Positions 37,905-63,392 are shown, counted from the first letter of the stretch. The stretch: 64,000 nt of DNA from Solirubrobacterales bacterium (GCA_036265675.1 DATAOP010000062.1:39560-103559); one strand, 5' to 3'. The notes: generated by a model from the sequence alone, not told the origin. Numbers and translations: made by a program.

Positions 37905-37973
37905 ATGAGAGCGGAGCGAGCAAGCATCCATCTCTGTTTCGTTGCGCAGCGAGCGAAGCGCGAAATTTGTTGA
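37905..37973 (+). repeat. Junction repeat copy R1 with micro-ORF (22 aa) coupled to thrS
   Basis: ATGAGAGCGGAGCGAGCAAGCATCCATCTCTGTTTCGTTGCGCAGCGAGCGAAGCGCGAAATTTGTTGA encodes MRAERASIHLCFVAQRAKREIC. Its TGA overlaps the thrS ATG as TGATG. Confidence 0.8.
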
Positions 37974-39907
37974 TGGCCACCCCGGCGACGAAGACCACCG
38001 TCACGCTGCCCGACGGGACCCCGCTCGAGCTGCCCGACGGCGCCTCCGGCGCCGACGCCGCGGCGGCGATCGGCCCCGGCCTCGCCAAGGCGGCGCTTGC
38101 GATCAGCGTCGACGGCGAGCTGCGCGACCTCGCGGCGCCGCTCCCGGACGGGGCCGAGATCGCGATCCTCACCGACCGCGACCCTGAGGCGCTGGCGCTG
38201 ATCCGCCACGACGCCGCCCACGTCATGGCGGAGGCGGTCCAGGAGCTCTATCCGGGCACGAAGGTGACGATCGGCCCCGCGATCGAGGACGGCTTCTACT
38301 ACGACTTCGAGTTCCCGGAGGACGTCAAGATCACCGAGGCCGACCTCGGCGAGATCGAGGAGGCGATGCGCGCCCACATCGCCGCCGACGAGCAGTTCTC
38401 GCGGCGCGACGTCCCGGTCGCCGAGGCGATCGAGATCTTCCGCGACCAGGGCGAGGACTACAAGGTCGAGCTGATCGAGGACCTGGTCGCCGACGAAGGG
38501 GTCGAGACCGTCTCGCTCTACCGCAACGGCCCGTTCGAGGACCTCTGCCGCGGCCCGCACGGCCCCTCGACCGCGCGGATCAAGGCGATCAAGCTGAACT
38601 CGGTCGCCGGCGCCTACTGGCGCGGCGACGAGACCCGGCAGATGCTGACCCGGATCTACGGGACCGCGTTCTTCAGCAACAAGGACCTCGAGGCCCATCT
38701 CGAGCGGATCGAGCAGGCGAGGGCCCGCGACCACCGCCGCCTCGGCCCCCAGCTCGGGCTCTTCATGCTCCGCGAGGAGGCGCCGGGGATGCCGTTCTGG
38801 CTGCCGAACGGGACGACGCTGCTGCGGCTGATCGAGGCCGAGGTCCAGAAGCAGCTGAGGAAGCGCGGCTACGAGGAGATCAAGACGCCGCAGGTGCTCG
38901 ACGTCGAGCTCTGGCACCGATCGGGGCACTGGGACAACTACCGCGAGAACATGTTCTTCACCGAGTCCGGCGATCGCCAGTACGCGATCCGGCCGATGAA
39001 CTGCCCGGGCGCCTGCCTCGTCTTCGGCTCCGAGCGTCACTCCTACCGCGAGCTGCCGCTGCGGCTGGCCGAGTTCGGCCAGGTCTCGCGCGCCGAGCGC
39101 GAGGGCGTCCTCCACGGACTGCTCCGGGTCCGCGCCTTCACCCAGGACGACGCCCACGTCTACTGCACGCCGGAGCAGATCGTCGACGAGGTGACCGAGA
39201 TCTGCGCCGCGATCGACGAGCTCTACGAGCGGTTCGGGTTCGACGACGTCCGGGTCGAGCTCTCGACCCGGCCCGAGAAGTCGATCGGCACCGCCGAGCA
39301 GTGGGAGCAGGCCGAAGCGGCATTGCGTGGCGCGCTCGAGGCGCAGGGGCGCGAGTACCAGCTCAATCCCGGCGACGGCGCCTTCTACGGGCCGAAGATC
39401 GACTTTCACGTCACCGACGCGCTCGGCCGCTCCTGGCAGTGCGGCACCTGCCAGGTCGACTTCTTCATGCCGGAACGCTTCGACCTCACCTACACCGACG
39501 CCGATGACGAGCAGCGGCGGCCGGTGATGATCCACCGCGCCCTGCTCGGCTCGATGGAGCGCTTTGCCGGAATCCTGATCGAGCACCACGCGGGCCGCTT
39601 CCCGGTCTGGCTGGCGCCGGTGCAGGCGGCGATCCTGCCGGTCGCCGACCGTCACCTCGAGTACGCGGCGAGCACCGCCGCCGAGCTCCGCGCGGCCGGA
39701 GTCAGGGTCACCGTCGACGAGCGTTCGGAGTCGGTCGGCAAGAAGATCCGCGACGCCGAGCTCGGCCGCTACCCGTACATGCTCGTCGTCGGTGACCGCG
39801 AGCAGGAGGCCGGGGCGGTCGCCGTCCGCTCCCATGAGGAGGGCGAGCTCGGCGCGATGCCGGTCGCCGACTTCGCCGCCCGGGTCGCTGCTGAGAGCGG
39901 GGCCTGA
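37973..39907 (+). CDS. thrS: Threonine--tRNA ligase
   Basis: TGS, editing and class II core motifs (HDAAHVMAEAVQ, RPMNCPG, FTQDDAHVYC, RALLGSMERF). ATG 37973; the track opens at TTG 37967. Confidence 0.95.
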   Translation: MATPATKTTVTLPDGTPLELPDGASGADAAAAIGPGLAKAALAISVDGELRDLAAPLPDGAEIAILTDRDPEALALIRHDAAHVMAEAVQELYPGTKVTIGPAIEDGFYYDFEFPEDVKITEADLGEIEEAMRAHIAADEQFSRRDVPVAEAIEIFRDQGEDYKVELIEDLVADEGVETVSLYRNGPFEDLCRGPHGPSTARIKAIKLNSVAGAYWRGDETRQMLTRIYGTAFFSNKDLEAHLERIEQARARDHRRLGPQLGLFMLREEAPGMPFWLPNGTTLLRLIEAEVQKQLRKRGYEEIKTPQVLDVELWHRSGHWDNYRENMFFTESGDRQYAIRPMNCPGACLVFGSERHSYRELPLRLAEFGQVSRAEREGVLHGLLRVRAFTQDDAHVYCTPEQIVDEVTEICAAIDELYERFGFDDVRVELSTRPEKSIGTAEQWEQAEAALRGALEAQGREYQLNPGDGAFYGPKIDFHVTDALGRSWQCGTCQVDFFMPERFDLTYTDADDEQRRPVMIHRALLGSMERFAGILIEHHAGRFPVWLAPVQAAILPVADRHLEYAASTAAELRAAGVRVTVDERSESVGKKIRDAELGRYPYMLVVGDREQEAGAVAVRSHEEGELGAMPVADFAARVAAESGA

Positions 39908-40045
39908 GGAAAACCTGCCGCGATGGCGCCCTGGCTCTATACTGCGCTGCACTTGATTGACGCCACGCCGAACATTCCACGCCGCTGAGCGTCCCGTGGC
40001 CTTGTCCGATTCACTCGTCCTCTTGAATATCCACCTCCTCTCCTA

Positions 40046-40642
40046 GTGCCGGTCCCCCGTAGGTTCGATCGGCGCCCCCCTGAGCGCGACACCACGCGGA
40101 TCAACGAGCGGATCCGGGTTCCGAAAGTGCGCCTGATCGGCGCCGACGGCGAGCAGCTCGGGATCGTCGAGACGCCCGACGCCCTGAAACAGGCGCAGGA
40201 GGCCGATCTCGACCTGGTCGAGGTTGCGCCGAACTCGAAACCCCCGGTCACCCGCCTGCTCGACTACTCGAAGTACAAGTACGAGCAGGAGCAGAAGCAG
40301 AAGGCCGCCCGCAAGCACCAGCAGCAGGTCAACGTCCGCGAGATCAAGCTCCGCCCGAAGATCGCCGACCACGACTACGAGACCAAGCGCGGCCATGTCG
40401 AGCGCTTCCTGCGCCAGCAGAACAAGGTCAAGATCACGATCATGTTCCGCGGCCGCGAGCAGGCCCACCCCGAGCGCGGCCGGGCGCTTCTCCAGCGCCT
40501 CTACGAGGACCTCGACGGCCTCGCCGTGATCGAGTCCGAGCCGCTCCAAGAGGGGCGCAACATGAGCATGATGCTCGCCCCGAGCAAAGAGGTGGCGAAG
40601 GCCAAACAGGCCGAGGCCGAGGCCGAGGCCGGCGCGGAATAG
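40046..40642 (+). CDS. infC: Translation initiation factor IF-3
   Basis: [23 protein letters not shown]...[26 protein letters not shown]...[21 protein letters not shown] lies directly after an in-frame TAG, with no Shine-Dalgarno, so the exact start is uncertain. Confidence 0.9.
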
Positions 40643-40675
40643 GACGAGACTTCCGCGGCCCTGAGCGGGGCCAGG

Positions 40676-41320
40676 TCAGTCCGTGGAGCCGGTGACGTCG
40701 CTGATCTGTACAGCGACGATGTTGGCGCTGACCCGAGCCCCGGAGGCGGCATTGTCCTTGTAGCACTCCAGGTCGAGCCTCTGCCCGGACGTGACCTGGA
40801 AGAGGGCGGTGAGCGTGAAATTGTCCGCCGTGCTGTCTTCACGAACCGGCTGAGCCCGCATGGTCGCGCTGCGGACCCCGGCGCCACCCTCGTTGATCAA
40901 CCTGCAGATGACCGTGCTGGTGATCGCGTTGACGGTTTCTGCGCCGACCGAGGCCGTCGCAAAATATGCGCCCGGGGGCACGCCGAGGCTGACGACGGTG
41001 GACCCGAACGGGCTCGAGCTGAATTTGTCGTAGTTGACCGAGCCGAACGCCTGGAATCCGCGGCTGGTCCCAGGGATCCCCGGTGGCCCCTGCGGCCCTT
41101 CTGCTCCCTGCAATGCTCGCTGTGCGAAGTCCTCGGGTCTCAGCGACCCGTCTTTCACTTTCAGGCTCGTCACCGAGTTCCTCTTGAGTTGCCTGTTGCC
41201 GACCGAGTTCTTGCTCAGCTGATCGGCGGCGTAGGCGCCGCCCCCCAGCGCAATGAGGAGGGCGAGGTAGGCGACCACGGTTGCGTGGCTTGGACGCCGG
41301 AGCTTCAGGTGCTTGCCCAT
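40676..41320 (-). CDS. Secreted/anchored protein with short collagen-like triplets and a globular C-domain
   Basis: MGKHLKLRRPSHATVVAYLALLIALGGGAYAA is a signal or anchor sequence, followed by GPQGPPGIPG. The N-terminus is paralogous to the 55411 gene. ATG 41320 follows GGGGG. Confidence 0.65.
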   Translation of the reverse strand: MGKHLKLRRPSHATVVAYLALLIALGGGAYAADQLSKNSVGNRQLKRNSVTSLKVKDGSLRPEDFAQRALQGAEGPQGPPGIPGTSRGFQAFGSVNYDKFSSSPFGSTVVSLGVPPGAYFATASVGAETVNAITSTVICRLINEGGAGVRSATMRAQPVREDSTADNFTLTALFQVTSGQRLDLECYKDNAASGARVSANIVAVQISDVTGSTD

Positions 41321-41406
41321 CTTGACCCCCGTTGGGATTGTGGCTTTTAGCCTCGCCCGCACGAAGGCCCGGGACGACGGTAGTCCCGAGGGGGCGGTAG
41401 GTCAAA

Positions 41407-43192: not shown

Positions 43193-43927
43193 ATGATCAC
43201 AAGCCCACAGAACGAGAAGCTGAAGCTGGTCCGCAGGCTTCGCGAGCGCCGCCATCGCGATCGCGAGGGCCTGTTCGTGACCGAGGGCGAGGATCTGGTC
43301 GACGCCGGTCGCGCCGCGGGCATCGAGCCGGCGGTGCTGCTGACCGCCGCGGGATCGGGCCTCGGAGGCGAGGAGGTGGGCGCCGAGCTGCTTGCCGAGG
43401 TCTCGGCGCTCGGGTCTGGGACGCGCGCTATCGCGGTCTGGCCGCAGTGCTGGGCCGAGGAGATCAAGCCGCCCTGTGTCTACATGCACGCCGTCGGTGA
43501 CCCGGGCAACGTCGGCGCGATCGTCCGCACCGCCGGGGCGCTGCTCGGGGGGACCGTCGTCCTCGGGCCCGACTGCGCCGATCCCCACGGCCCGAAGGCG
43601 GTGCGGGCGAGCATGGGCGCGATCTTCGCCCAGCCGCTCGCCCGCGGCGCCGTCGAATCGACGGCCGAGCCGCGGGCGGCGCTCGTCGCCCACGGTGGCG
43701 ACGGTCCCGACGCGCTCGAGGGCTGCGCGACGATCTGCCTCGGCGCCGAGCGGGAGGGGCTCCCGGCCGAGGTCCTCGACCACTGCCGCCGGCGGGTGAC
43801 GATCCCGCTGCGGGCCGGGGCGGCCGAGTCGCTCAACGTCGCCGCCGCAGCCGCCATTGCCCTTGAGCGCGTCGCGAGCGCAGCGTCCATATCTGATTCA
43901 TCGCAGGCGAGCGAGCGCGAAATATGA
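43193..43927 (+). CDS. TrmH/SpoU-family RNA 2'-O-methyltransferase
   Basis: DPGNVGAIVRTAGA...ICLGAEREGLP...VTIPL...ESLNVAAAAAIAL are SpoU motifs. The last 17 codons derive from junction repeat R2. Confidence 0.85.
   Translation: MITSPQNEKLKLVRRLRERRHRDREGLFVTEGEDLVDAGRAAGIEPAVLLTAAGSGLGGEEVGAELLAEVSALGSGTRAIAVWPQCWAEEIKPPCVYMHAVGDPGNVGAIVRTAGALLGGTVVLGPDCADPHGPKAVRASMGAIFAQPLARGAVESTAEPRAALVAHGGDGPDALEGCATICLGAEREGLPAEVLDHCRRRVTIPLRAGAAESLNVAAAAAIALERVASAASISDSSQASEREI
43874..43927 (+). repeat. Junction repeat copy R2, absorbed into the 3' end of the methyltransferase CDS
   Basis: GCGAGCGCAGCGTCCATATCTGATTCATCGCAGGCGAGCGAGCGCGAAATATGA. The core TCCATATCTGATTC and the 3' GCGAGCGAGCGCGAAAT match R1 and R6 with small indels. 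Confidence 0.7.
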
Positions 43928-43969: not shown

Positions 43970-45028
43970 ATGCTTGACCGGATCGAGGAGATAAGAGCCG
44001 AGGCGGCTGCGGCGATCGAGGCCGCGTCCGGGACCGCGGAGCTCGAGGAGCTGCGGGTCCGCCATCTGGGCCGCAAAGCCGAGCTGACCTCGATCCTGCG
44101 CGGGATCGCCGACCTCCCCCAGGAGGAGCGGGGACCCGTCGGCAGCAGCGCCAACCGCGCCCGCCAGGAGCTCGAGGCGCTGCTCGAGGCCCGCGCCGCC
44201 GAGCTCGACGCCGCCGAGCTCGAGACGACCCTCGCCGGGGACCGGGTCGATGTGACCCTGCCCGGGGCGCCGCCGGCGCCTGCCGGCCACCTGCACCTGA
44301 TCACCCGCACCACCCGCCAGATCGAGGACGTGATGATCGGGCTGGGCTACCGGGTGATGGAGGGGCCCGAGGTCGAGCACGACTACTACAACTTCACCAG
44401 CCTCAACCACCCGCCGGGCCATCCGGCGCGGATGCTCCAGGACACCTTCTACGTCCAGTCCGACCCCGAGGTCCTGCTGCGGACCCATACCTCTCCGGTC
44501 CAGACGCGGGCGATGGAGGCCGAGCCTCCGCCGATCTTCGTGATCATGCCGGGCAAGGTCTACCGCCGCGACTCCGACGCGACCCACAGCCCGATGTTCC
44601 ACCAGGTCGAGGGCCTCGCGATCGGCGAGGGGATCACGCTCGCCGACCTTCAGGGAACGCTGGAAGAGATGCTGCGGGCGATCTTCGGCGAGGGGCGCGA
44701 GGCGCGGATGCGGCCGCACTACTTCCCGTTCACCGAGCCCAGCGTCGAGTTCGACGTCTCATGCTTCGCCTGTGACGGGACCGGCACCCTTGCGGGCGGC
44801 GAGCGCTGCGGCCTCTGCAAGGGGATCGGCTGGATCGAGGTCGGCGGCGCCGGGATGGTCGACCCCAACGTCCTCGAGTTCGTCGCCGACAACGGCTACG
44901 ACCCCGAGCAGGTCCAGGGCTTTGCCTTCGGGATGGGGGTCGAGCGGATCGCGATGCTGCGCCACGGCGTCCCTGACCTGCGGCGCTTCTTCGACAACGA
45001 CGTGCGGATGCTGAGGCAGTTCCTCTGA
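43970..45028 (+). CDS. pheS: Phenylalanine--tRNA ligase alpha subunit
   Basis: LRTHTSPVQTRAM...PGKVYRRD.DATHSPMFHQVEGL...FPFTEPS are class II motifs. ATG lies 9 nt after GGAGAGG. Confidence 0.95.
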   Translation: MLDRIEEIRAEAAAAIEAASGTAELEELRVRHLGRKAELTSILRGIADLPQEERGPVGSSANRARQELEALLEARAAELDAAELETTLAGDRVDVTLPGAPPAPAGHLHLITRTTRQIEDVMIGLGYRVMEGPEVEHDYYNFTSLNHPPGHPARMLQDTFYVQSDPEVLLRTHTSPVQTRAMEAEPPPIFVIMPGKVYRRDSDATHSPMFHQVEGLAIGEGITLADLQGTLEEMLRAIFGEGREARMRPHYFPFTEPSVEFDVSCFACDGTGTLAGGERCGLCKGIGWIEVGGAGMVDPNVLEFVADNGYDPEQVQGFAFGMGVERIAMLRHGVPDLRRFFDNDVRMLRQFL

Positions 45029-45032
45029 GCCA

Positions 45033-45098
45033 ATGCGAAGCGAACGTCGAAATCTGGTTCTCCGTGAGCGGAGCATTGGCGAAGGCCGGGTGGTTTGA
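45033..45098 (+). repeat. Junction repeat copy R3 (diverged) with 21-aa micro-ORF between pheS and pheT
   Basis: ATGCGAAGCGAACGTCGAAATCTGGTTCTCCGTGAGCGGAGCATTGGCGAAGG... shares AATCTGGTTCT and GCGAAGCGA with the family. The micro-ORF TGA (45096) directly abuts the pheT ATG (45099). Confidence 0.55.
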
Positions 45099-47558
45099 AT
45101 GAGGGTCCCGTACACATGGCTGCGCGAGCACTGCGACCCCGGCGTCCCGGCCGAGGAGCTGGCCCTGCGGCTGGCGATGACCGGGACCGAGGTCGAGCGG
45201 GTCGGGTCGATCGGCCCGCCGAGCGGCAGCGGCTTCGTGATCGGCAGGGTCGAGACCCGCGAGCCGCACCCGAACGCCGACCGACTCAGCGTCTGCACCG
45301 TCGACACCGGCGAGTCCGAGCCGCGGACGATCGTCTGCGGGGCGCCAAACGTCGACGCCGGCCAGACCGTCGCGGTGGCGCTGCCGGGGGCGACGATGCC
45401 GGGCGGGGTCGAGCTCGGCGAGGCCAAGCTTCGCGGCGTCACCTCCTCGGGGATGATCCTCTCCGCCGCCGAGCTCGAGATCGGCGAGGACGCGGACGGG
45501 ATCATGGTCCTCGACGACGGGCCCGAGCCCGGCACGCCGCTCTCCGAGGCGCTGCCCCTGGCCGAGCAGGTGCTCGAGCTCGAGGTGACTCCGAACCGCC
45601 CCGACTGCCTCGGTGTCTACGGGGTCGCTCGCGAGGTCCACGCGGTGACCGCGGCGCCGCTCGGCCCCGCGCCGTGGGAGGACGACGTGCACGCCGACGG
45701 CGACGGCAAGGTCGAGGACCACGCCTCGGTCACCGTCGAGGTCCCCGAGCTCTGCCCGCGCTTCACCGGCCGGGTCTTCACCGACGTCAAGATCGGCCCC
45801 TCGCCGCCATGGCTGCAGGCCCGCCTGACGGCTGCCGGCCAGCGCCCGATCAACAACGTCGTCGACATCACCAACTACGTGATGCTGCTGACCTCGCAGC
45901 CGCTCCACGCCTTCGACCTCGACCGCGTTCCCGACGGCGAGGTGATCGTCCGCACCGCCGCCGACGGCGAGGGGATGACCACCCTCGACGGCGTCGAGCG
46001 GGAGTTCGACACCGAGACCGTCCTCGTCTGCGATCGCGAGGGGCCCTCGGGCGTCGCCGGGATCATGGGCGGCCAGGTCTCCGAGGTCTCGGAGAGCACG
46101 ACCAGGGTGCTGCTCGAGGCGGCCAACTGGAACGGGACCAACGTCCTCCGCACCTCGCGCAAGCTCGGGCTTCGCTCGGAGGCGTCGGCGCGATTCGAGA
46201 AAGGGCTGCACCCGGAGCTCTGCATGCGGGGCCAGATCGTCGCCTCGCGGCTGTTCGTCGAGCTCTGCGGCGCGAAGCTGGTGCCGGGGACGATCGACGT
46301 CGCTGGCGAGATACCCGACCACCACCACATCGGCCTGCGCGAGGAGAAAGTCGGCGAGCTGCTCGGGATGGAGGTCGGCGAGGCCGACCAGATCACCTAC
46401 CTCGAGCGGCTCGGGTTCAGCATCCACACCGCCCACGGCAAGCTCCTGGTCGAGGTCCCCGCCGACCGCCACAGCGACGTCACCCGCGAGGTCGACCTGA
46501 TCGAGGAGATCGGCCGGATCCACGGCCTCGACGAGCACCTTCCCTCGACCCTGCCGACCGCGATGGGCCAGGTCGGCGGACTGACCCGCGCGCAGCGCCT
46601 GCGGCGCCGGGCCGAGGACGCGATGCGCGACCTCGGCTTCGACGAGATCGTCGGTTGGAGCTTCACCGACGCCGGCGAGGCCGACCGGTTGCGGGTTCCC
46701 GCCGACGACCCGCGCGCGGGCGCGGTCGTCGTCTCCAACCCGCTGTCCGAGGATCAGTCGGTGATGAGGACGACGCTGCTCGGATCGCTGCTCGACGTCG
46801 CCCGCGGCAACCTCGCCCGCGGCGCCGACCGGATCGCCCTGTTCGAGTCGGGCCGCGTCTACCTGCCGCCGGACGGGATCGGGGACGGGCCGCTGGCCGG
46901 AGACTTCCCGGGCGAGCGCCCGGCTCCGTTCGCCGAGCCGCACCGGGTCGGCTCTCTCGCGGTCGGCGATCTCGGGCCCGCCTCGTGGCGGGGCGCTCCT
47001 ACCCCGGCCGACTTCTTCGCCCAGAAGGGCGTCCTCGAGGGCCTCGCGTCGCGGCTGGGCGTCGAGCTCGCCTTCGGGCCCGTCTCGGAGCCGTTCCTGC
47101 ATCCGGGCCGTGCCGCCGCGGTCCTCGTCGAGGGCGCCGCGGCGGGCTGGGTCGGCGAGGTGCACCCGCTGGTCTGCCGGGCATGGGACGTCGCGGCGGC
47201 CTCGGCGTTCGAAATCGACCTGGCGCCGCTGGTGGCCGCCTCACCAGCATGGCAGGAGGAGTTCGAGGACCTGACGACCCACCCCGCCGTCCTCCAGGAC
47301 CTCGCCGTTGTGGTCGAGGACTCGGTCCCGGGGGCCGAGGTCCGTGCCGCGGTGCTGGCCGGCGGCGGCGAGCTGCTGCGCTCGGCCGAGGTCTTCGACC
47401 TCTACCAGGGCGAGCAGCTCGGCGACGGCCGCAAGAGCCTGGCGCTGCGGCTCGAGTTCCGGGCCGCCGACCGGACCCTGACCGACGACGAGGTCGCCGG
47501 CCTGCGCGACTCGATCGCCGCCAGCCTCGACAAGATCGGGGGGACGTTGCGTGGATGA
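45099..47558 (+). CDS. pheT: Phenylalanine--tRNA ligase beta subunit
   Basis: MRVPYTWLREHC..., tRNA-binding domain GRVETREPHPNADRLSVCTVD, B3/4 and B5 domains and a FDX-ACB C-terminus; 819 aa. Confidence 0.95.
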   Translation: MRVPYTWLREHCDPGVPAEELALRLAMTGTEVERVGSIGPPSGSGFVIGRVETREPHPNADRLSVCTVDTGESEPRTIVCGAPNVDAGQTVAVALPGATMPGGVELGEAKLRGVTSSGMILSAAELEIGEDADGIMVLDDGPEPGTPLSEALPLAEQVLELEVTPNRPDCLGVYGVAREVHAVTAAPLGPAPWEDDVHADGDGKVEDHASVTVEVPELCPRFTGRVFTDVKIGPSPPWLQARLTAAGQRPINNVVDITNYVMLLTSQPLHAFDLDRVPDGEVIVRTAADGEGMTTLDGVEREFDTETVLVCDREGPSGVAGIMGGQVSEVSESTTRVLLEAANWNGTNVLRTSRKLGLRSEASARFEKGLHPELCMRGQIVASRLFVELCGAKLVPGTIDVAGEIPDHHHIGLREEKVGELLGMEVGEADQITYLERLGFSIHTAHGKLLVEVPADRHSDVTREVDLIEEIGRIHGLDEHLPSTLPTAMGQVGGLTRAQRLRRRAEDAMRDLGFDEIVGWSFTDAGEADRLRVPADDPRAGAVVVSNPLSEDQSVMRTTLLGSLLDVARGNLARGADRIALFESGRVYLPPDGIGDGPLAGDFPGERPAPFAEPHRVGSLAVGDLGPASWRGAPTPADFFAQKGVLEGLASRLGVELAFGPVSEPFLHPGRAAAVLVEGAAAGWVGEVHPLVCRAWDVAAASAFEIDLAPLVAASPAWQEEFEDLTTHPAVLQDLAVVVEDSVPGAEVRAAVLAGGGELLRSAEVFDLYQGEQLGDGRKSLALRLEFRAADRTLTDDEVAGLRDSIAASLDKIGGTLRG

Positions 47559-48582: not shown

Positions 48583-49778
48583 GCCCGGAAGCGGACGCGA
48601 AGCGGAGCATCTCGGCCAGTGAGTTTTTTCGGTCCCGCTGGGTCGAGCCGCCCGCCGGAGTCGAGGAGCTCGATCCGTCCCGGCTGGCCCCGGGCTTCGC
48701 CGCCGGCGCCGTCGCCTGCGGCCTGAAGGAGAGCGGCAACACCGACGCCGCCGTCGTCGTAGCCGGCTCCGAGAGCTGCGAATCGGCCCTGCTCCTGACC
48801 CGCAACGCGGCCGCCGCGGCCCCGGTTCGGCTCTGCCGCGAGAGCCTCGACTTCGGCGCGATCCGCGCCGCCGCTGTCAAGGCCGGCAACGCGAACGCCG
48901 CGACCGGGGACCAGGGGATGCATGACGCCGTCGCGATCCAGCGGGCGGCGGCCGAGGAGCTCGATCTCGACCCCTCCGTCGTCGCGATCGGCGCGACCGG
49001 GAAGATCGGCGAGGCGCTGCCGATGGAGAAGGTCCTCGACGGCGTCCGCCGCGCCGCTGCGGCCGTCCGCCCCGACGGCGGCGAGGAGTTCGCGGAGGCG
49101 ATCATGACCACCGACCGCGGCCCGAAGCGGTGCACCGTCAGCTGCGACGGGGTCACGCTCTCGGCCCAGGCGAAGGGGGCCGGGATGATCCAGCCCGGCT
49201 TCGCCACGATGCTCTGCTTCGTCCAGACCGACGCCGTCCTCGATGGCCCCTACGGCGCCGAGGCGGCGCTGCGCGAGGCGGTCGATCGCTCCTTCGAGCG
49301 GATCACGGTCGACGGCCAGATGAGCACCAACGACATGGTCCTGCTCCAGGCGAGCGGCGAGTCCGGCCGGCCGCTGCCGCAGGGCATGCTCGACGCCGTG
49401 CTCCTCCAGCTCGCGCTCGAGATCGTCGCCGACGGCGAGGGGGCGACGCGGGTCGGGCGTGCGCGGGTCAGCGAGGCGGCGAGCCAGGAGGAGGCCGAGC
49501 GGATCGCCCGCGCGATCGCCAACTCGCCGCTGGTCAAGACCGCCCTCTTCGGCCGCGACCCGAACTGGGGACGGATCGCGCAGGCGGCCGGGATGGCGCT
49601 GGCCGGCGAGGAGGTCGAGGAGCTCGGCCCCGACCACATCGACGCCGAGGAGTTCGCCGGCGAGGGGGCGGAGGCCGATGTCACGTTGCGGCTGGGACGC
49701 GGCGACCACTCCGCCCACGTCTGGTTCTCGGATCTCGGCTACGAGTACGTTCGAATCAACGCCGAGTACACGACCTGA
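48579..49778 (+). CDS. argJ: Bifunctional glutamate N-acetyltransferase/amino-acid acetyltransferase
   Basis: KGAGMIQPGFATMLCFVQTD (autocleavage ATML site)...DGQMSTNDMV...GRDPNWGRI. ATG overlaps the argC stop as ATGA. Confidence 0.9.
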   Translation: MSPEADAKRSISASEFFRSRWVEPPAGVEELDPSRLAPGFAAGAVACGLKESGNTDAAVVVAGSESCESALLLTRNAAAAAPVRLCRESLDFGAIRAAAVKAGNANAATGDQGMHDAVAIQRAAAEELDLDPSVVAIGATGKIGEALPMEKVLDGVRRAAAAVRPDGGEEFAEAIMTTDRGPKRCTVSCDGVTLSAQAKGAGMIQPGFATMLCFVQTDAVLDGPYGAEAALREAVDRSFERITVDGQMSTNDMVLLQASGESGRPLPQGMLDAVLLQLALEIVADGEGATRVGRARVSEAASQEEAERIARAIANSPLVKTALFGRDPNWGRIAQAAGMALAGEEVEELGPDHIDAEEFAGEGAEADVTLRLGRGDHSAHVWFSDLGYEYVRINAEYTT

Positions 49779-49826
49779 ATGGAGACCATGATCGCGGAGC
49801 GAGCGAAGCGGGAGTATTTGCCGTGA
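49779..49826 (+). repeat. Junction repeat copy R4 (short form) with 15-aa micro-ORF between argJ and argB
   Basis: ATGGAGACCATGATCGCGGAGCGAGCGAAGCGGGAGTATTTGCCGTGA encodes METMIAERAKREYLP. It starts right after the argJ TGA and ends GTGA on the argB GTG. It lacks the ATCCATATCTGGTTCT core. Confidence 0.65.
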
Positions 49827-50662
49827 ACGCCAGCGTCGACACCCTGCTCGAGGCCCTTCCCTACATCCGGGAGTTCCACGGCCGCACGGTGGTGATCAAG
49901 TACGGCGGCTCGGCGATGCGCGACGAGGCGCTGCGCGAGGGCTTCGCGACCGACGTCGTCCTCCTCAAGTACGTCGGCCTCAACCCGGTGATCGTCCACG
50001 GCGGCGGGCCCGAGATCACCGAGTACATGGAGCGGCTCGGACTCGAGGTGCGATTCCACGAGGGACTTCGCGTCTCCGACGCCGAGACGGTTGAGGTGGC
50101 GCGGATGGTGTTGCTCGGCAAGGTCAACTCGGACATCGTCCAGCGGATCAACCGCCATGGGCAGCCGGCGGTCGGGCTCTCGGGCCAGGACGGATCGCTG
50201 TTCGGAGTCTCTCCGGTCCCGAACGCCGAGCAGGTCGGGTTCGTCGGCGCGATCGACCGGGTCGACGTCGACGTCCTCAACCACATCGCCGTCGACTACA
50301 TCCCGGTCGTCGCCTCCTCGGCCTCCGACCGCGACGGGAACGCCTACAACGTCAACGCCGACGAGGCCGCCGGCAAGGTCGCCGCCGCGTTGCAGGCATA
50401 CAAGGCGATCTTCCTCACCGACGTCGTCGGCTGGCTCGCCGACCCCGCCGACGATTCGAGCCTGACCTCGCGGGCGAGCGTCGCCGAGGTCGAGGAGAGG
50501 CTCGACGGGATCGACGGCGGGATGCGGCCGAAGCTCACCGCCTGCGTCGATGCGATCAGGGGCGGCGCCCAGTCGGCCCACATCATCGACGGCCGCAGGC
50601 CGCACAGCCTCCTGCTCGAGCTGTTCACGGACGCCGGGATCGGGACGATGGTGACGTCATGA
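49823..50662 (+). CDS. argB: Acetylglutamate kinase
   Basis: LPYIREFHGRTVVIKYGGSAM...NPVIVHGGGPEI...YNVNADEAAG. GTG 49823. Confidence 0.9.
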   Translation: MNASVDTLLEALPYIREFHGRTVVIKYGGSAMRDEALREGFATDVVLLKYVGLNPVIVHGGGPEITEYMERLGLEVRFHEGLRVSDAETVEVARMVLLGKVNSDIVQRINRHGQPAVGLSGQDGSLFGVSPVPNAEQVGFVGAIDRVDVDVLNHIAVDYIPVVASSASDRDGNAYNVNADEAAGKVAAALQAYKAIFLTDVVGWLADPADDSSLTSRASVAEVEERLDGIDGGMRPKLTACVDAIRGGAQSAHIIDGRRPHSLLLELFTDAGIGTMVTS

Positions 50663-50694
50663 CTTTCCGCCCATCTGCTCTGCTCCGGGCACGG

Positions 50695-50723
50695 CCAGAG
50701 AATCAGATATGGATGGCCGCGCC
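50695..50723 (-). repeat. Junction repeat copy R5 (core in inverted orientation) between argB and argD
   Basis: The reverse strand reads GGCGCGGCCATCCATATCTGATTCTCTGG. A 43-aa plus-strand ORF (50659..50790) spans the whole spacer, with ATGA overlaps at both the argB stop and the argD start. Confidence 0.6.
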
Positions 50724-50786
50724 CCTCCGCGTCCGCGATGGGCGGGTGGGTGGCAGCTCGGCGTCCGCGGCGGGCGGTCCAATGTC

Positions 50787-51974
50787 ATGAACCTCACGGA
50801 GCTGCAGGGACTCGAGGAGCGCTACCTGATGGGGACCTATCGCCGCGGCGAGGTCGAGTTCGTGCGCGGCGAGGGAGCCATGCTCTGGGACTCGGACGGG
50901 AAGGAGTACCTGGACCTCCTCGCCGGGATCTCGGTCTGCTCGGTCGGCCACTGCCACCCGGACGTGGTCGAGGCGATCCGCGAGCAGTCCGGGCGGCTGA
51001 TGCACACCTCGAACCTCTTCTACACCGAGCCGATGGTGCGCCTCGCCGAGCGACTCTCGGAGTCGAGCCTCGGCGGCCGCGTCTTCTTTGCGAACTCGGG
51101 GACCGAGGCCAACGAGTGCGCGATCAAGATCGCCCGCAAGCACGCCCACCGGCGCGGGGTCTCCTCGCCGGCGATCATCAGCTTCGAGCGCGACTTCCAC
51201 GGCCGCACCTACGGCTCCCTCTCGGCGACCCCCGGGCTGGCGGCGAACCCGGCTCTCGGACCGATGCTCGAGGGCTTCCGCTCGGTCCCGTTCGACGACG
51301 CCGATGCCCTGCGCGACGCCGTCGACGGGCAGACGGCGGCGGTCCTGATCGAGCCGATTCAGGGCGAGGCCGGGATCTACCCCCTCAGCGAGGACTCGCT
51401 GATCGCCGCGCGTGAGGCCTGCGACGCAGTCGGCGCGCTCCTGATCCTCGACGAGATCCAGACCGGGGTCGGCCGGACCGGCTCGCTCTGGGCCTACGAG
51501 CAGACCCCGGTGCGCCCCGACGTCCTCACCAGCGCCAAGGCGCTCGGCGGCGGGATGGCGATCGGCGCCTGCATCACGAACGAGGCGGCCGGCGCGGTGC
51601 TGGAGCCGGGCGACCACGGCTCGACCTTCGCCGGCGGCCCGGTCGCCTCGGCGGCGGCCCTCGCCGTCCTCGACATCGTCGACGACCCGGTCCTGCTGCG
51701 GGCCGTGAGGGAGCGTGGGCGGCGCCTGCGCGAGGGGCTCGAGGCGCTCGACGGCGTTCGCGAGGTGCGTGGCCGCGGCCTGATGATCGGCGTCGGGCTC
51801 GAGGAGGGCCTCGACTCGGCGGCCATCACCGTCGACCTGCTCGGGCGGGGCGCCGTCGTCAACGCGCCCGAGCCGCGGACCCTGCGGCTGCTCCCCCCGC
51901 TGACGATCGATGACTCCCAGGCCGACCGCGCCATTGCGCTGATCGGCGAATCGCTCCTAAGCTACAAGCCATGA
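50787..51974 (+). CDS. argD: Acetylornithine aminotransferase
   Basis: YLDLLAGISVCSVGHCHP...NSGTEANECAIKIAR...LILDEIQTGVGRTG...TSAKALGGG (PLP Lys). Confidence 0.9.
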   Translation: MNLTELQGLEERYLMGTYRRGEVEFVRGEGAMLWDSDGKEYLDLLAGISVCSVGHCHPDVVEAIREQSGRLMHTSNLFYTEPMVRLAERLSESSLGGRVFFANSGTEANECAIKIARKHAHRRGVSSPAIISFERDFHGRTYGSLSATPGLAANPALGPMLEGFRSVPFDDADALRDAVDGQTAAVLIEPIQGEAGIYPLSEDSLIAAREACDAVGALLILDEIQTGVGRTGSLWAYEQTPVRPDVLTSAKALGGGMAIGACITNEAAGAVLEPGDHGSTFAGGPVASAAALAVLDIVDDPVLLRAVRERGRRLREGLEALDGVREVRGRGLMIGVGLEEGLDSAAITVDLLGRGAVVNAPEPRTLRLLPPLTIDDSQADRAIALIGESLLSYKP

Positions 51975-52042
51975 ACGCGGAGCGAGCAAGCATCCATATC
52001 TGGTTCTGTGCGCAGCGAGCGAAGCGTGAGGCGTTGTCATGA
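51971..52042 (+). repeat. Junction repeat copy R6 with 23-aa micro-ORF between argD and the next ORF
   Basis: ATGAACGCGGAGCGAGCAAGCATCCATATCTGGTTCTGTGCGCAGCGAGCGAAGCGTGAGGCGTTGTCATGA encodes MNAERASIHIWFCAQRAKREALS, with ATGA overlaps at both ends. Confidence 0.8.
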
Positions 52043-52500
52043 ACGCGAGCAAAATGCCGCCCAAAGGCCGCAAAGGCGGCTCCGACCCCGTCGGCGGGGC
52101 GGCCGAGCGCCTGGCCGAGATCGTCGGCGCCGCCGAGCGGGCGGCGGCCGCGGTCATCGACGACGCGGAGAAACAGGCGCAGGGCCGGATCGACGAAGCG
52201 CAGGAGCGCGCCGACCGGATTGCGGCCGACCGCCTGCGGGCGATCGCCGACGAACTCGACCCGCCCAGCGCCGGAGGCGAGGAGCGGCCGCGGCTGCGGA
52301 CGGTCGAGGCGGTCCCCGAGCCGGCCGAGAGCGCCGCGCCGGCCGGGCCCCGGTCCGACGAGGCGGGCGCGCGGCTGCTGGCGACCCAGATGGCCGTCTC
52401 CGGCGCCAGCCGCAAGGAGATCGAGAACCGGCTCCGCGCCGGCGCCGGCATCGAAGACCCGGCGCCGCTGCTCGACGCGATCCTGGGCCCCGAGGAGTAG
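52039..52500 (+). CDS. Hypothetical coiled-coil protein (sits where argF/argR are expected)
   Basis: 153 aa. AERLAEIVGAAERAAAAVIDDAEKQAQGRIDEAQERADRIAADRL is a helical N-half, followed by the C-terminal ARLLATQMAVSGASRKEIENRL. No family I can name. Confidence 0.55.
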   Translation: MNASKMPPKGRKGGSDPVGGAAERLAEIVGAAERAAAAVIDDAEKQAQGRIDEAQERADRIAADRLRAIADELDPPSAGGEERPRLRTVEAVPEPAESAAPAGPRSDEAGARLLATQMAVSGASRKEIENRLRAGAGIEDPAPLLDAILGPEE

Positions 52501-52506: not shown

Positions 52507-52869
52507 ATGCACGACGACCCGACCCGGGTGATGGGACAGCCACCCGACCGTGACGGTGGCGGCGGCCGGCCGCACGGCAACATGCGACTGCTGATCGCCG
52601 GCCTGATCGCGGTCATCGTCGGCCTGGTGATCGCGGTCATCGTCATCGCCGGCGGCGACAGCGGCGGCGAAACGACCCCGACGGGGACCGAACTGACGAC
52701 CGAAACGACCGAAACCACGGAACCGACGGAACCGACGGAAACCACCGAAACCACCGAGCCGGGGCAACCGAGCCCCGAAGAAGCCGAACCGACCACCCCG
52801 ACGACTCCGACGCCGGAAGCGCCCGAATCCGGCGAAGAAGGGGGCAGCGGCGGGCTCGAAGCCCCTTGA
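52507..52869 (+). CDS. Single-pass membrane protein with Thr/Glu/Pro-rich tail
   Basis: TM segment LLIAGLIAVIVGLVIAVIVIAGG, then TELTTETTETTEPTEPTETTETTEP. The stop overlaps the argG TTG as TTGA. Confidence 0.55.
   Translation: MHDDPTRVMGQPPDRDGGGGRPHGNMRLLIAGLIAVIVGLVIAVIVIAGGDSGGETTPTGTELTTETTETTEPTEPTETTETTEPGQPSPEEAEPTTPTTPTPEAPESGEEGGSGGLEAP
52702..52755 (+). repeat. Six tandem 9-bp units (GAA-ACS-ACS / GAA-CCG-ACG)
   Basis: GAAACGACC GAAACCACG GAACCGACG GAACCGACG GAAACCACC GAAACCACC encodes ETT and EPT repeats. Confidence 0.7.
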
Positions 52870-54307: not shown

Positions 54308-54315
54308 TCGTCGAG

Positions 54316-59826: not shown

Positions 59827-59850
59827 GCCGGCGCTCCCTAGACTTCTTCC

Positions 59851-60225: not shown

Positions 60226-60312
60226 GCGCTTTCGGGATTACACGATTCCGTGTACCATCCCGCGACCCCTCAGGGCGGGCAGGGCCCGGGCCCTCGGACG
60301 GGCAGGAAACCA

Positions 60313-61602
60313 ATGAGTGAGCGAGGCGCAGTGGCAGAGGCGGAAGAGCTCGTCGCGGAGGCGGCCGGCGGCGGCGGGAGCACCGACGGTCCGGCGTTCA
60401 CGCTCGAGCTGAACCAGGACCAGAAGGACATCCGCGACTGGGTCCACGGCTTCGCCGAGAACGTCGTGCGGCCGGCGGCCTCGGAGTGGGACGAGCGCGA
60501 GGAAACGCCCTGGCCGGTGATCCAGGAGGCGGCCAAGATCGGCCTCTACGGATTCGAAGGCCTGGCTCAGTTCTGGGCCGACGAGACAGGCCTGACGCTG
60601 CCGATCGTCAACGAGGAGCTGTTCTGGGGCGACGCCGGCATCGGGATGAGCATCTTCGGCACTTCGCTTGCCGTCGCCGCGATCTTCGGGCAGGGGACCC
60701 CGGAGCAGTTGGGCGAGTGGATCCCGCAGTGCTTCGGCACCGCGGAGGAGCCGAAGGTCGCCGCCTTCTGCTCCTCGGAGCCGGACGCCGGCTCCGACGT
60801 CTCGGCGATCCGCACCACCGCGAAGTACGACGAGGCGAAGGACGAGTGGGTCCTGAACGGCCAAAAGGCGTGGGCGACCAACGGCGGGATCGCCGACGTC
60901 CACGTAATCATCGCCAGCGTCGACCGCAAGCTCGGCTCGCGTGGCCACGCCGCCTTCGTCGTGCCGCCGGGGACCGCGGGGTGCGAGCAGGGCGCCAAGG
61001 TCAAGAAGCACGGCCTGCGCGCATCCCACACCGCCGATGTCCACCTCGACGATTGCCGGGTTCCGGGCTCCTGCCTGCTGGGCGGGAAGGAGAAGCTCGA
61101 TGAGCGGCTCGCCCGGGTGCGCGAGGGCAAGAAGTCGAAATCTCAGGCGGCGATGCAGACCTTCGAGGCGAGCCGGCCGACGGTCGGCGCCCAGGCGGTC
61201 GGCATCGCCCGCGCGGCCTACGAGTACTCGCTCGAGTACGCGAAGGAGCGCGAGCAGTTCGGCCGCCCGATCGTCGAGAACCAGGCGATCGCATTCGCAC
61301 TCGCCGACATGAAGCTCGAGATCGACGCCGCCCGGCTGCTGGTCTGGCGCGGCGCCTGGATGGGGAGATCCGGCCAGACCTTCGAGAACGCCGAGGGCTC
61401 GATGGCGAAGCTGAAGGCCGGCGAGGTCGCGGTCTGGGTCACCGAGCGCGCGATCCAGATCCTCGGCGGCAACGGCTACACCCGCGAGTTCCCGGTCGAG
61501 CGCATGTCCCGCGACGCAAAGATCTACACGATCTTCGAGGGCACCTCCGAGATCCAGCGCCTGGTCATCTCGCGCGCGATCTCCGGCATGCAGATCAGAT
61601 AG
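60313..61602 (+). CDS. Acyl-CoA dehydrogenase
   Basis: CSSEPDAGSDVSAIRTTA...NGQKAWATNGG...GGNGYTREFPVERMSRDAKIYTIFEGTSEIQR. ATG 60313 follows AGGAAA. Confidence 0.9.
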   Translation: MSERGAVAEAEELVAEAAGGGGSTDGPAFTLELNQDQKDIRDWVHGFAENVVRPAASEWDEREETPWPVIQEAAKIGLYGFEGLAQFWADETGLTLPIVNEELFWGDAGIGMSIFGTSLAVAAIFGQGTPEQLGEWIPQCFGTAEEPKVAAFCSSEPDAGSDVSAIRTTAKYDEAKDEWVLNGQKAWATNGGIADVHVIIASVDRKLGSRGHAAFVVPPGTAGCEQGAKVKKHGLRASHTADVHLDDCRVPGSCLLGGKEKLDERLARVREGKKSKSQAAMQTFEASRPTVGAQAVGIARAAYEYSLEYAKEREQFGRPIVENQAIAFALADMKLEIDAARLLVWRGAWMGRSGQTFENAEGSMAKLKAGEVAVWVTERAIQILGGNGYTREFPVERMSRDAKIYTIFEGTSEIQRLVISRAISGMQIR

Positions 61603-61624
61603 CTGCTCCCGGCCTTCGCAAGAC

Positions 61625-61894
61625 TTAGACGTTCGCTACTACCTCGCGGACCTCAACGCTTTCGAGCGTGACGTTGTCGTCAGCGTCGGCCATCGCCGCC
61701 GCTCGCTCGCGCGCCGCGTTGGCGGCATCCTCGGACTCGAAGACAATCATCCCGATCCCCGAGTCATCCTTACGTGTCCAGTGTCCGGTTACGAGGCCGG
61801 GGGCCTGTTTCACGACGGGCACAACCTCCTCACGCAGTTTGCTGATGGCGGCCTCGGGGTCATGGATGGTGACCATCAAGACGACTGCATGCAT
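61625..61894 (-). CDS. Small hypothetical protein (ABM/dimeric alpha-beta-barrel-like)
   Basis: 89 aa, ATG after GAAGGAGGA. The pattern ...MIVFESEDAANAA... resembles ABM-type folds (weak evidence). Confidence 0.55.
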   Translation of the reverse strand: MHAVVLMVTIHDPEAAISKLREEVVPVVKQAPGLVTGHWTRKDDSGIGMIVFESEDAANAARERAAAMADADDNVTLESVEVREVVANV

Positions 61895-62036
61895 CGGGTC
61901 CTCCTTCGTCGGGTTGCACGACTCTATCCGCCAGCTAGGGAGCCGAAGCCAGGGGAGCCGTGGCGCAGACCTGGCGGGCGACTGCGAGCGCCGAGAGGCG
62001 CTGACTGGCGAACCGATTGCCGGACAGATCCTTGCG

Positions 62037-62074
62037 GTGGGAGAAACCCGCCCTCAAGGCGGGGCTTCTCCCAC
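62037..62074. other. Long hairpin GTGGGAGAA-A-CCCGCC-CTCAA-GGCGGG-GC-TTCTCCCAC
   Basis: 15 paired positions inside the 232-nt gap downstream of nfo; no U-tract on either strand. Confidence 0.5.
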
Positions 62075-62126
62075 CGGAGCGCCCGGGCCGCCGGTTCTTC
62101 ACACCGGAAGCATCCACCGGACGGTG

Positions 62127-62990
62127 TCAGCCGCCCCGTTTCTTCAAGCCGGATTTGCGCAGGCGCCTGGCGGCCAGGACTTCCTTGCGGTCGGGGCCTT
62201 TCTTGCGCGGGCCCGGCGTCTCGAGCGTCGCCGGCAGGCCCTCGAACCGCGGCTCGGAGAGGAATGCGGCGAGCCCGGCCTTGCCCATCTCGCCCTTGCC
62301 GATGTTGGCGTGGCGGTCGCGGCAGGAGCCGAGCGGCGCCGCGGCGTCGTTGACGTGGAGGCAGCGCAGGCGGTCGAGCCCGACCTTGGCGTCCGCCTCG
62401 TCGACGACTGCGGATAGGTGCTCGGAGTCGGTGACGTCGAAGCCCTGGACGAAGAGGTGGCAGGAGTCGAGGCAGAGGCCGAGCCGCCTGGCGCCACCCG
62501 CAAGCTCGATCAGCTTCGCGGTCTCGTCGAAGTCGCGGCCGAGAAGCCCTTTGTGGCCGGCCGTCTGCTCGAGCAGCAGCGGGCAGCTCTCGCTGTCCTC
62601 GAGGGCGGCGGCGATCACCTTCGCGGCTCGTTTCATCGACGGCCCGTGGGGCTCGCCTTTCTGGGCGCCAGGATGGAGCACGACGCCGTCCGCCCCGATC
62701 CCGTCACCCGTCCGCAGCGCATGCGTGAGGGAGGTGAGCGATTTCTTTCGCAGCTCTTTGTCTTTCGTCGCGCAGTTGATCAGGTAGACGGCGTGGATCA
62801 CGACGGCTTCGATCGGGGACGCGTCCATCGCCTCGCGGAAGGCGGCGAAATCGTCCGGCCCGTAGCGGGTCGGACGCCACATTCGCGGGCTCTGGTTGAA
62901 GATCTGAATCGATTGGCAGGCGAGATCGGTCCCGCGCTCGATCGCGTTGGGAAGGCCGCCGGCCGTCGAAACGTGGGCTCCGATCAGCAT
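62127..62990 (-). CDS. nfo: Endonuclease IV (deoxyribonuclease IV)
   Basis: MLIGAHVSTAGG...VIHAVYLINCA...VVLHPG...LCLDSCHLF...LHVND are AP endonuclease 2 metal-ligand motifs, with a basic C-tail. Confidence 0.9.
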   Translation of the reverse strand: MLIGAHVSTAGGLPNAIERGTDLACQSIQIFNQSPRMWRPTRYGPDDFAAFREAMDASPIEAVVIHAVYLINCATKDKELRKKSLTSLTHALRTGDGIGADGVVLHPGAQKGEPHGPSMKRAAKVIAAALEDSESCPLLLEQTAGHKGLLGRDFDETAKLIELAGGARRLGLCLDSCHLFVQGFDVTDSEHLSAVVDEADAKVGLDRLRCLHVNDAAAPLGSCRDRHANIGKGEMGKAGLAAFLSEPRFEGLPATLETPGPRKKGPDRKEVLAARRLRKSGLKKRGG

Positions 62991-63015
62991 CGGCGTGCAC
63001 TCTAAGCTCAGAGGC

Positions 63016-63339
63016 GTGGCGGGGCCTCGCGTCGAGTTCCTCTGGTGGAGCGGCTGCCCCTCGTGGGAGCGGGGGCTCGCCGAGCTGCGCGGGGCGATGG
63101 AGGAGGCCGGGCTCGATCCCGCCTCGATCGAGATGCGTCAGATCGAGACCGAGGACGATGCGGCGCGGGAGTCGTTCCCCGGCTCGCCGACGATCCGGGT
63201 CGACGGCGCCGACGTCGCCGAGGCGGCGCCGTCGGCCGACTCGCCGCTGACCTGCCGCGTCTACCGCCGCCGCGACGGGCGCCCCTCGCCGCTTCCCGAC
63301 CCCGAGGACGTTCGCGCGGCGCTAGGTTCCCCGGAATGA
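63016..63339 (+). CDS. Thioredoxin-fold small protein (DUF2703-like)
   Basis: VEFLWWSGCPSWERG...FPGSPTIRVDGADV...LTCRVY. GTG 63016. The present C-terminus and stop lie inside junction repeat R7. Confidence 0.7.
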   Translation: MAGPRVEFLWWSGCPSWERGLAELRGAMEEAGLDPASIEMRQIETEDDAARESFPGSPTIRVDGADVAEAAPSADSPLTCRVYRRRDGRPSPLPDPEDVRAALGSPE

Positions 63340-63392
63340 GCCCGGAGCGAGCCCAATGAGCCATATCTGGTTCTTCGCGCGGCGCTAGGTTC
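63330..63392 (+). repeat. Junction repeat copy R7 plus the second copy of a 19-bp flanking direct repeat
   Basis: CCCGGAATGAGCCCGGAGCGAGCCCAATGAGCCATATCTGGTTC followed by TTCGCGCGGCGCTAGGTTC, which is identical to 63311-63329. Two chained micro-ORFs (7 aa and 10 aa) are linked by ATGA. Confidence 0.75.

Follow-up and report, generated by a model that had tools for sequence, protein, structure and literature searches.

Why should the same short sequence recur exactly where one gene ends and the next begins? The question is raised by a 64,000-nt stretch from a Solirubrobacterales bacterium (GCA_036265675.1, DATAOP010000062.1:39560-103559; hereafter the window), in which a first-pass annotation had marked, from 37.9 to 63.4 kb, at least seven related repeats located at gene junctions (R1 to R7), and had proposed a small intra-operonic insertion element that is tolerated, or selected, only when it preserves translational coupling. 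Our analysis indicates that the repeats probably belong to a family of small non-autonomous insertion elements, specific to the Solirubrobacterales lineage, which land on start codons and carry an open reading frame (ORF) that preserves coupling. Searches with blastn and nhmmer place all seven repeats at the junctions claimed. R1 and R6, judged by eye to be about 85% identical over 57 nt, align at 88% identity over 59 nt (blastn, E 3e-14); R7, R2, R5 (on the minus strand) and R4 are also significant family matches by blastn, and R3 is marginal. An nhmmer profile built from the copies of other genomes finds R6, R1, R7, R2, R5 and R3, and nothing else, in the window, with E-values from 2e-20 to 2e-3. 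Positions 1-37,000 hold no copy, in agreement with the earlier account. The family has two forms, type A with a unit of about 64 nt and type B, a 124-nt hairpin subfamily, and its copies in the window are as follows.

37905..37975, plus strand: R1, type A, before thrS (nhmmer E 4e-18; thrS identified by Pfam)
43860..43927, plus strand: R2, an older type A copy of the sub-lineage GCGCAGCG...CGCAAGCG, upstream of pheS (nhmmer E 8e-10)
45026..45101, plus strand: R3, strongly diverged, filling the junction of pheS and pheT (nhmmer E 2e-3)
49779..49826, plus strand: R4, a core-deleted type A copy (ATGATCGCGGAGCGAGC joined to GAAGCGGGAG...), on the argB start (blastn to both ends of R6; exact 5′ motif)
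50659..50790, minus strand: R5, type B, 124 nt plus a duplicated ATGA (structure alignment; argB-argD junction empty in relatives)
51971..52042, plus strand: R6, the best-preserved type A copy, between argD and the next gene (nhmmer E 2e-20)
63334..63392, plus strand: R7, a rearranged type A copy with left half and loop intact (nhmmer E 8e-11)

To place these copies in a wider context, we scanned one genome per species for the pattern GCGAGC-N5-9-CCATATCTGRTTC, which returned at least 116 loci (comparison loci are cited by numbers such as L091, a Solirubrobacterales locus syntenic with the window around thrS, which assigns the window to this order). Among the matches listed, about 55 contigs from metagenome-assembled genomes (MAGs) of Solirubrobacterales carry the same type A sequence of about 64 nt, with the consensus CATGAGCGCGGAGCGAGCAAGCGTCCATATCTGGTTCTTCGCGCCGCGAGCGAAGCGCGAG-N8-ATG, and nhmmer counts 77 copies in actinobacterial (Solirubrobacterales) MAG loci and the window. 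Copies also occur in tandem, with a period of 68-70 nt (L024, L008) and two to four units per array (L024, L008, L098, L021). Other matches to the pattern were discarded. Those in proteobacteria (L004, L006, L015 and some 35 more loci) are chance matches to the rpoC codons for LASPVAHIWF, and the likeness of this peptide to the micro-ORF peptide ASIHIWF is a coincidence of the pattern and not homology; three matches on viral contigs have nothing in common beyond the pattern and are likewise due to chance. At gathering thresholds Rfam reports only two tRNAs in the window, and at permissive thresholds a search of positions 49700-52150 and of a related verrucomicrobial element described below gave noise only, with no family. 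Our search of the literature on repeats in Solirubrobacterales found no paper.

Evidence that the repeats are insertions comes from orthologous junctions, which we compared in 80 metagenomic loci encoding ArgB at 77-90% identity, taken with 10-kb flanks (0.92 Mb in total) and holding only seven profile matches. Empty and filled sites differ by exactly 68 nt. At the junction of argD with the next gene, most relatives have an ATGA overlap (L178 reads ...CCTCA ATGA GCAAGCG), and the filled sites of L159 and L048 read ATGA, 64 nt, ATGG or ATGA, and then GCAAGCG. Between argB and argD, the empty form (A/G)TGA ACCTGAC is found in L178, L159, L145 and about 30 others, and the filled form in L166 is ATGA, 64 nt and GTGA ACCTGAC; at the same junction the type B copy of the window reads ATGA, 124 nt and ATGA, against GTGA in L121 and others. 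Between pheS and pheT, 36 of the 40 relatives have the bare 4-nt overlap ATGA or GTGA, and the window (R3) and L127 hold a 66-nt insert. The gain of 68 nt thus consists of 64 nt and a duplicated (A/G)TG(A), and equals the tandem period. The argB-argD junction was struck independently several times, by type A (L166), by copies now reduced to type A remnants (L135, L119) and by type B (window, L124, L127). Deletion remnants are also seen at the same junctions, in R4, L120, L135, L119 and L091, the last with a 25-nt remnant before thrS. Other sequences occupy such sites too: in L162 an unrelated palindromic insert, GCTTCCGGTGCGCTCTATGCCATCTATGCGCACATAAAGCGCACCGGAAG, lies between argB and argD bounded by ATGA and GTGA, and the (A/G)TGA target seems to be common to several types of element. 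A different insert of about 145 nt (…CGCTGCAAACCGGCGCATCTCGGGGTCTTCGGTCGGTTGCCTCGGGTCACGCAC…) is present at the argJ-argB junction in L131, L184 and L133 and at the argB-argD junction in L179, and from its sequence looks like a second repeat family at the same kind of site.

To define where the elements lie relative to genes, we used an ungapped alignment of 46 copies with 72 columns, in which the ATG of the element stands at column 3 and TGA occupies columns 4-6. Most copies have the downstream start codon at column 71 ± 3, and in 50 of the 52 type A copies that could be scored the gene downstream runs in the direction of the element. In at least 12 copies, and in R6, an upstream gene with the same orientation uses the TGA of the element as its stop codon. 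Copies without this coupling frequently follow a different rule, since 15 of 31 have the hexamer TANNNT 5-9 nt (mostly 6-7) before the ATG of the element, a configuration that was not found in any of the 31 at two control offsets. In the window the hexamer precedes R1 (TAGCAT at 37892-37897), R6 (TAAGCT) and R7 (TAGGTT), each time 7 nt before the ATG, and an ordinary Shine-Dalgarno sequence precedes the ATG of R4. The TANNNT geometry is probably that of an actinobacterial leaderless start, with the enrichment of the hexamer as the one line of evidence for it. The common denominator of placement is the start codon of a gene and not the operon junction: the earlier proposal of an intra-operonic insertion element holds for insertion, as the 68-nt difference demonstrates, but not for a restriction to operons, since about half of the uncoupled copies lie behind TANNNT. 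As a separate observation, the last codons of argD contain a TAAGCT or TAGGCT hexamer about 10 nt before the ATG of the next gene, in the window (51958-51963) and in about 40 relatives with 60-72% protein identity, which may be an internal promoter embedded in coding sequence.

Most type A copies also preserve a small ORF. Since 68 = 3n+2, the ATG at column 3 shares its frame with a stop codon at column 69 (as TGATG, TAATG or TAGTG) or at column 72 (as ATGA or GTGA), so that the frame works automatically, even in tandem arrays. A natural control is provided by column 35, which is G (TGG) in about two-thirds of copies and A (an in-frame TGA) in the rest. Where it is G, column 3 holds ATG, GTG or TTG in 26 of 29 copies, and the stop codon of the resulting ORF of 22-23 codons overlaps the downstream start in 24 of 29 (19 of 24 after removal of orthologous duplicates). 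Where it is A, the overlap survives in only 1 of 15, the start column has drifted (68-87) and Shine-Dalgarno-like sequences appear. The difference in overlap is highly significant (Fisher p = 1e-6, or 2e-5 after deduplication), and a start column of 2 mod 3 is found in 26 of 31 G35 copies (p = 1e-8) but in 3 of 9 A35 copies. Thus, the expectation that a spanning ORF whose ends overlap the neighbouring codons is kept far above chance is borne out for intact copies, whereas the stricter claim that the element persists only when coupling is preserved goes too far, given that in about one-third of copies an in-frame TGA stands at columns 33-35 and the spacing typical of coupling is gone. The 3′ tail (columns 60-70) is variable in sequence and yet keeps the frame, which points to translation, and we infer from this pattern that the small ORF is translated. 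Its peptide is not what is conserved. The columns that vary correspond to codon positions 1 and 2, and they track base pairing and not codon structure, which rules out a conserved peptide and agrees with the first-pass view that conservation is at the nucleotide level.

The pairing that these columns follow was assigned by RNAalifold and by our own analysis, which agree on two stems, P1 (columns 7-10 with 56-59) and P2 (columns 22-24 with 41-43), together closing a 16-nt loop, TCCATATCTGRTTCTT. The loop is nearly invariant (as RNA, UCCAUAUCUGRUUCUU) and the internal loops are conserved. Pairing is maintained in 96.9% of cells, with double changes in 6 of the 9 pairs (37 cells); none of 500 shuffles reaches this, and slid controls give at most 61%. 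The element had been described as having no strong hairpin, which is correct in the thermodynamic sense, but it is not free of structure, given the two short covarying stems of type A and the compensated 9-12-bp stems of type B. Weak stems would suit a sequence that ribosomes must read through.

Type B has the layout outer variable stem, CGCGGACGCGGGA, inner variable stem of 9-12 bp, type A loop, GGAGCAGAGSAG and outer stem, and its stems are fully compensated. Ten of 11 copies are antisense to both flanking genes. On the gene strand, an ORF spans the element from (A/G)TGA to ATGA in the window, L151, L159 and L124, and at three other loci (L155 at ~13660-13720, L171 at ~18490-18550 and L001 at ~5150-5270) the element is read through in frame as an N-terminal extension of the downstream gene. 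By eye, the genes extended in this way are CinA-like and Dus-like, and the peptide PEESDMDR.SLPRPG recurs. Counts of G·U against A·C pairs in types A and B (about 12 favouring the loop-sense strand as hairpin former and about 4 the other) are suggestive only of a hairpin that forms on the loop-sense strand. A closely similar core occurs outside the Actinobacteria. Seventeen of the loci listed come from a single MAG of the Verrucomicrobiae, CAVXLD01, in which the core hairpin GCGAGCGAAGCGCCCATATCTGGTTCATACGGGTCGAGCGAGC lies within an element of 293 nt, bounded by terminal inverted repeats of 31 bp, that is present in at least 19 places at 96-99% identity, and the copy number there is due to amplification of this MITE, a miniature transposable element with inverted repeats. 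The 293-nt MITE is found at L013 (1653-1945) and also at L002, L018, L027, L029 and others; its terminal inverted repeat, GTGTCCTGTCCCATAAATAACGTGGCTTTCG, usually adjoins YTA, and its hairpin, with a 25-bp stem, has an apex nearly identical to the Solirubrobacterales core (GCGAGCGAAGCG-CCCATATCTGGTTC-...GAGCGAGC).

Read against this background, the copies in the window are of differing ages and states, R1 and R6 being intact, R2 older and common to other species, and R3 heavily diverged. Pfam confirms thrS, infC, SpoU, pheS, pheT, argC, argJ, argB, argD, argG, dnaE and the redoxin gene; the ORF upstream of R7 that had been called trx-like has no Pfam support. The micro-ORF junctions are as originally described, including the TGATG on thrS, the TGA abutting the pheT ATG, the GTGA on argB and the ATGA that opens and closes both 50659-50790 and 51971-52042. 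The R1 micro-ORF (37905-37973, MRAERASIHLCFVAQRAKREIC) ends on the thrS ATG at 37973. The reading frame of the SpoU-type methyltransferase runs through R2, which encodes its last ~20 codons, beyond the Pfam domain that ends at residue 224 of 244; copies at this SpoU-pheS junction are also found in L091, L033, L149, L159, L178 and L127. R3 extends from the pheS TGA (45026-45028) through a 21-codon ORF (45033-45098) to the pheT ATG at 45099. R6 supplies the argD stop through its ATGA (51971-51974), pairs 51975-78 with 52024-27 (P1) and 51990-92 with 52009-11 (P2) around a loop at 51993-52008, and encodes a 23-codon ORF that ends ATGA on the ATG of the next gene at 52039.

The other copies depart from the first description in part. 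R4 is a member of the family but not an intact one, as a deletion between two internal direct repeats, GAGCGAGC and GCGAGCG, has removed its core; a similar form is found in L120. It lies behind the original GGAGACC Shine-Dalgarno sequence, at a site where relatives read TGA-GGAGAC-ATG. R7 is likewise a family copy that is not intact: in place of its right half stands a second copy of the upstream 19 nt, TTCGCGCGGCGCTAGGTTC (63311-63329 = 63374-63392). Through this duplication a TAGGTT box lies 7 nt ahead of the ATG of the micro-ORF (63336) and again 7 nt ahead of the redoxin ATG (63399). R5 is indeed inverted; the 29 nt originally recognised are not a fragment but the loop of a separate hairpin element of 124 + 4 nt at 50659-50790. 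On its minus strand the loop TCCATATCTGATTCTC is enclosed by an inner stem of 11 bp and by the outer stem CCGCCCATC/GATGGGCGG, and its gene (plus) strand carries a 43-codon ORF from ATGA to ATGA. Outside the family, a 9-nt unit (CGACCGAAA-like) stands six times in tandem at 52688-52768, within a 120-codon ORF (52507-52869) that has no Pfam match.

How, then, might such elements be accommodated on start codons? The landing sites are of three kinds, namely (A/G)TGA stop/start overlaps within operons, starts led by a Shine-Dalgarno sequence and probable leaderless starts. In each case the left ATG of the element could take over the existing initiation route of the gene, by coupling to the upstream stop codon, through the Shine-Dalgarno sequence or as a 5′-terminal AUG. 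The ORF of 22-23 codons would then carry ribosomes across the element to its end, TGATG or ATGA, on the gene's own start codon, where they would be passed on by termination-reinitiation. An ORF that ends on the start codon suggests such a hand-on of ribosomes, at little cost to expression. With regard to movement, the element could fold, as single-stranded DNA or RNA, into the two short stems around the 16-nt loop, and the loop, the internal loops and the stems would be the parts most likely to be recognised by a mobilising machinery. The loop is common to two oppositely oriented subfamilies and to the hairpin of the Verrucomicrobiae MITE, which raises the further idea, rather unlikely in our estimation, that the invariant loop and the conserved internal loops, held on covarying stems, are the recognition site of an undiscovered mobilisation system that targets (A/G)TGA on single-stranded DNA or via an RNA intermediate. 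In a weaker variant of this idea, transcripts of types A and B could interact as RNAs through their complementary loops.

Several observations weigh against the interpretation of the family as start-codon insertion elements. No transposase, autonomous insertion sequence (IS) partner or terminal inverted repeats were found in the loci examined, and the duplicated tetranucleotide is clean in only a handful of filled/empty pairs. The fourth base on the right is often not A, so that either the duplicated unit may be ATG or an ATGA may belong to the element itself. Type A is no stabler than shuffled sequence (z from +0.4 to +1.7). A promoter and terminator scan around R1 with an E. coli-type model gave nothing, and the gene calls at the MAG loci are from a crude caller based on GC3. 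Finally, some copies occupy the same junction in several species with the loop kept, which could mean in-place selection for function and not neutrality.

This last point leads to the explanation that the repeats are a cis-regulatory RNA module, a leader or upstream ORF (uORF) with a hairpin that binds protein or RNA, kept at each site to control the downstream gene, their mobile appearance being secondary. Such a module would fit the covarying stems, the near-invariance of the 16-nt loop and of the internal loops over many species, and the constant spacing between element and start codon. It would likewise fit the SD-like GAGG that many copies have at columns 60-63 and the retention of copies across lineages at the SpoU-pheS junction (window, L091, L033, L149, L159, L178) and after argD (window, L048, L159). 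However, most close relatives lack the element at the corresponding junctions, tandem arrays exist, Rfam gives no match even at permissive E-values, and many copies are decayed, core-deleted or rearranged (R3, R4, R7, the loop of L159, L120, L135). The downstream genes, moreover, are functionally unrelated: 47 downstream proteins fall into 41 unrelated clusters and include the products of metK, atpD, tilS, ribF, purA, rph, coxB, rpe, thrS and pheS, an aldehyde dehydrogenase and a response regulator, which rules out a regulon or riboswitch. We therefore consider a regulatory module unlikely.

An ordinary hairpin repeat of the REP (repetitive extragenic palindrome), REPIN or MITE kind, moved by a transposase acting in trans, would account for the compensated stems, especially those of type B, for the short target duplication and for the similar core in the amplified 293-nt MITE; the ORF and its overlaps would then be by-products of survivorship at ATGA junctions, and translation would have no role. 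That the 3′ tail keeps its frame and the overlapping stop as long as the ORF is open, and drifts after an in-frame TGA, is hard to explain without translation. Type A, in addition, has no terminal inverted repeats beyond the 4-bp stem and no GTAG motif, and strict co-orientation with genes is unexpected of a repeat that acts purely at the DNA level, so that we regard this alternative as very unlikely. There is next to no prospect that the repeats are GC-rich intergenic sequences that happen to look alike, or that they arose in assembly. The window has a G+C content of 69.7% and many weak spurious repeat families, and a general search of all of it recovered only such GC-rich families and not the one described here. 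Nevertheless, the loop motif TCCATATCTGRTTC (≤2 mismatches) occurs six times in the window against 0.22 expected, with none of 100 shuffles reaching six, the 5′ motif TGANCGCGGAGCGAGC occurs five times, every time at a claimed site, and the same 64-nt sequence is present in dozens of independent assemblies from different projects and assemblers; the cross-genome scan, the profile search and the shuffle test together refute this reading. A family of small elements inserting at start codons thus remains the explanation we prefer.

To our knowledge, repeats of the type of the MIRUs (the interspersed repetitive units of mycobacteria) have been known since 1997 from mycobacteria only, where they serve mainly as typing markers and where their movement and their siting on start codons are unexplained. 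The elements described here would form a second family built on this logic, from a remote, largely uncultured order of the Actinobacteria, and bring with them dozens of clean empty/filled junctions, an internal control for translation in the form of TGG and TGA copies, and a conserved structured core. They suggest that, in high-GC genomes where leaderless transcripts are plentiful, small mobile DNA has a general strategy of inserting at start codons in a way that preserves coupling, and give concrete handles for finding the mobilising machinery; if the loop were indeed a recognition site, the family would be a tractable system for studying how MIRU-type elements move and choose start codons. 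In practical terms, the elements create unannotated ORFs of 20-45 codons, extend or alter the ends of genes (SpoU in the window) and will confuse the prediction of start codons and operons in Solirubrobacterales MAGs.

Amongst known repeats, the REP, BIME (bacterial interspersed mosaic element) and REPIN sequences are similar in being short, extragenic, non-autonomous hairpins with compensated stems, often co-transcribed between the genes of an operon. REPs and REPINs are GC-rich palindromes of 20-40 nt with a conserved GTAG-like head, frequently arranged in inverted pairs and linked to the gene of a RAYT transposase. The present family, however, has neither a GTAG head nor inverted pairs, type A is barely palindromic, and a position on the start codon together with a coupled ORF is foreign to REPs. 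MITEs such as Correia/NEMIS and ERIC, a class marked by terminal inverted repeats like those of an autonomous IS, are likewise small non-autonomous insertions, tolerated when compatible with expression, and Correia and ERIC are co-transcribed; in type A, by contrast, the ends pair over only 4 bp (the covarying P1), the outer stems of type B are variable and no IS partner was found in the loci examined. The N-terminal extensions produced by type B (L155, L171, L001) resemble Rickettsia palindromic elements, which insert in frame into ORFs, but in contrast to both these elements and MITEs the target and frame logic of the present family is centred on the start codon. The coupled or leaderless short uORFs of Actinobacteria, as summarised from Shell et al. 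(2015) in PMC12548453, also begin at a leaderless AUG or a stop overlap and have ribosome delivery as their only apparent role, although here the ORF is part of a repeated mobile sequence and not a leader specific to one locus.

The closest analogue is the MIRU, with which we compare the family through published functional descriptions. As far as PMC3184786 and PMC12548453 recount the work of Supply et al. (1997), MIRUs are units of 40-100 bp, both dispersed and tandem, that lie inside polycistronic operons in the orientation of the genes, with ORFs that overlap the neighbouring genes, filled sites show tetranucleotide direct repeats where homologous sites are empty, and insertion appears to occur at start codons with -4 coupling. 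Measured against those accounts, the Solirubrobacterales unit of 64 nt, with a period of 68 nt, is of comparable size and both dispersed and tandem; it lies between co-oriented genes and in their orientation (50 of 52), with many copies behind a -10-like box, which widens the definition; the ends of its small ORF overlap the flanking stop and start codons, with ATGA at the 5′ end and, for 24 of the 29 open-frame copies, a 3′ end in TGATG or ATGA; and homologous sites are found both empty and filled, the filled ones with a short direct repeat, (A/G)TGA ... (A/G)TGN. The two differ in host, the class Thermoleophilia (Solirubrobacterales) and not Mycobacterium, in the nearly invariant 16-nt loop on covarying stems and the hairpin subfamily of opposite orientation that distinguish the present family, and in the location of many of its copies at probable leaderless promoters and not inside operons. 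The first-pass annotation did not recognise the element as a described one, which holds for the family itself but not for its kind, since mycobacterial MIRUs, as portrayed in those two articles, behave alike. By this analogy, the repeats of the window look like an undescribed family of a kind that has been described.

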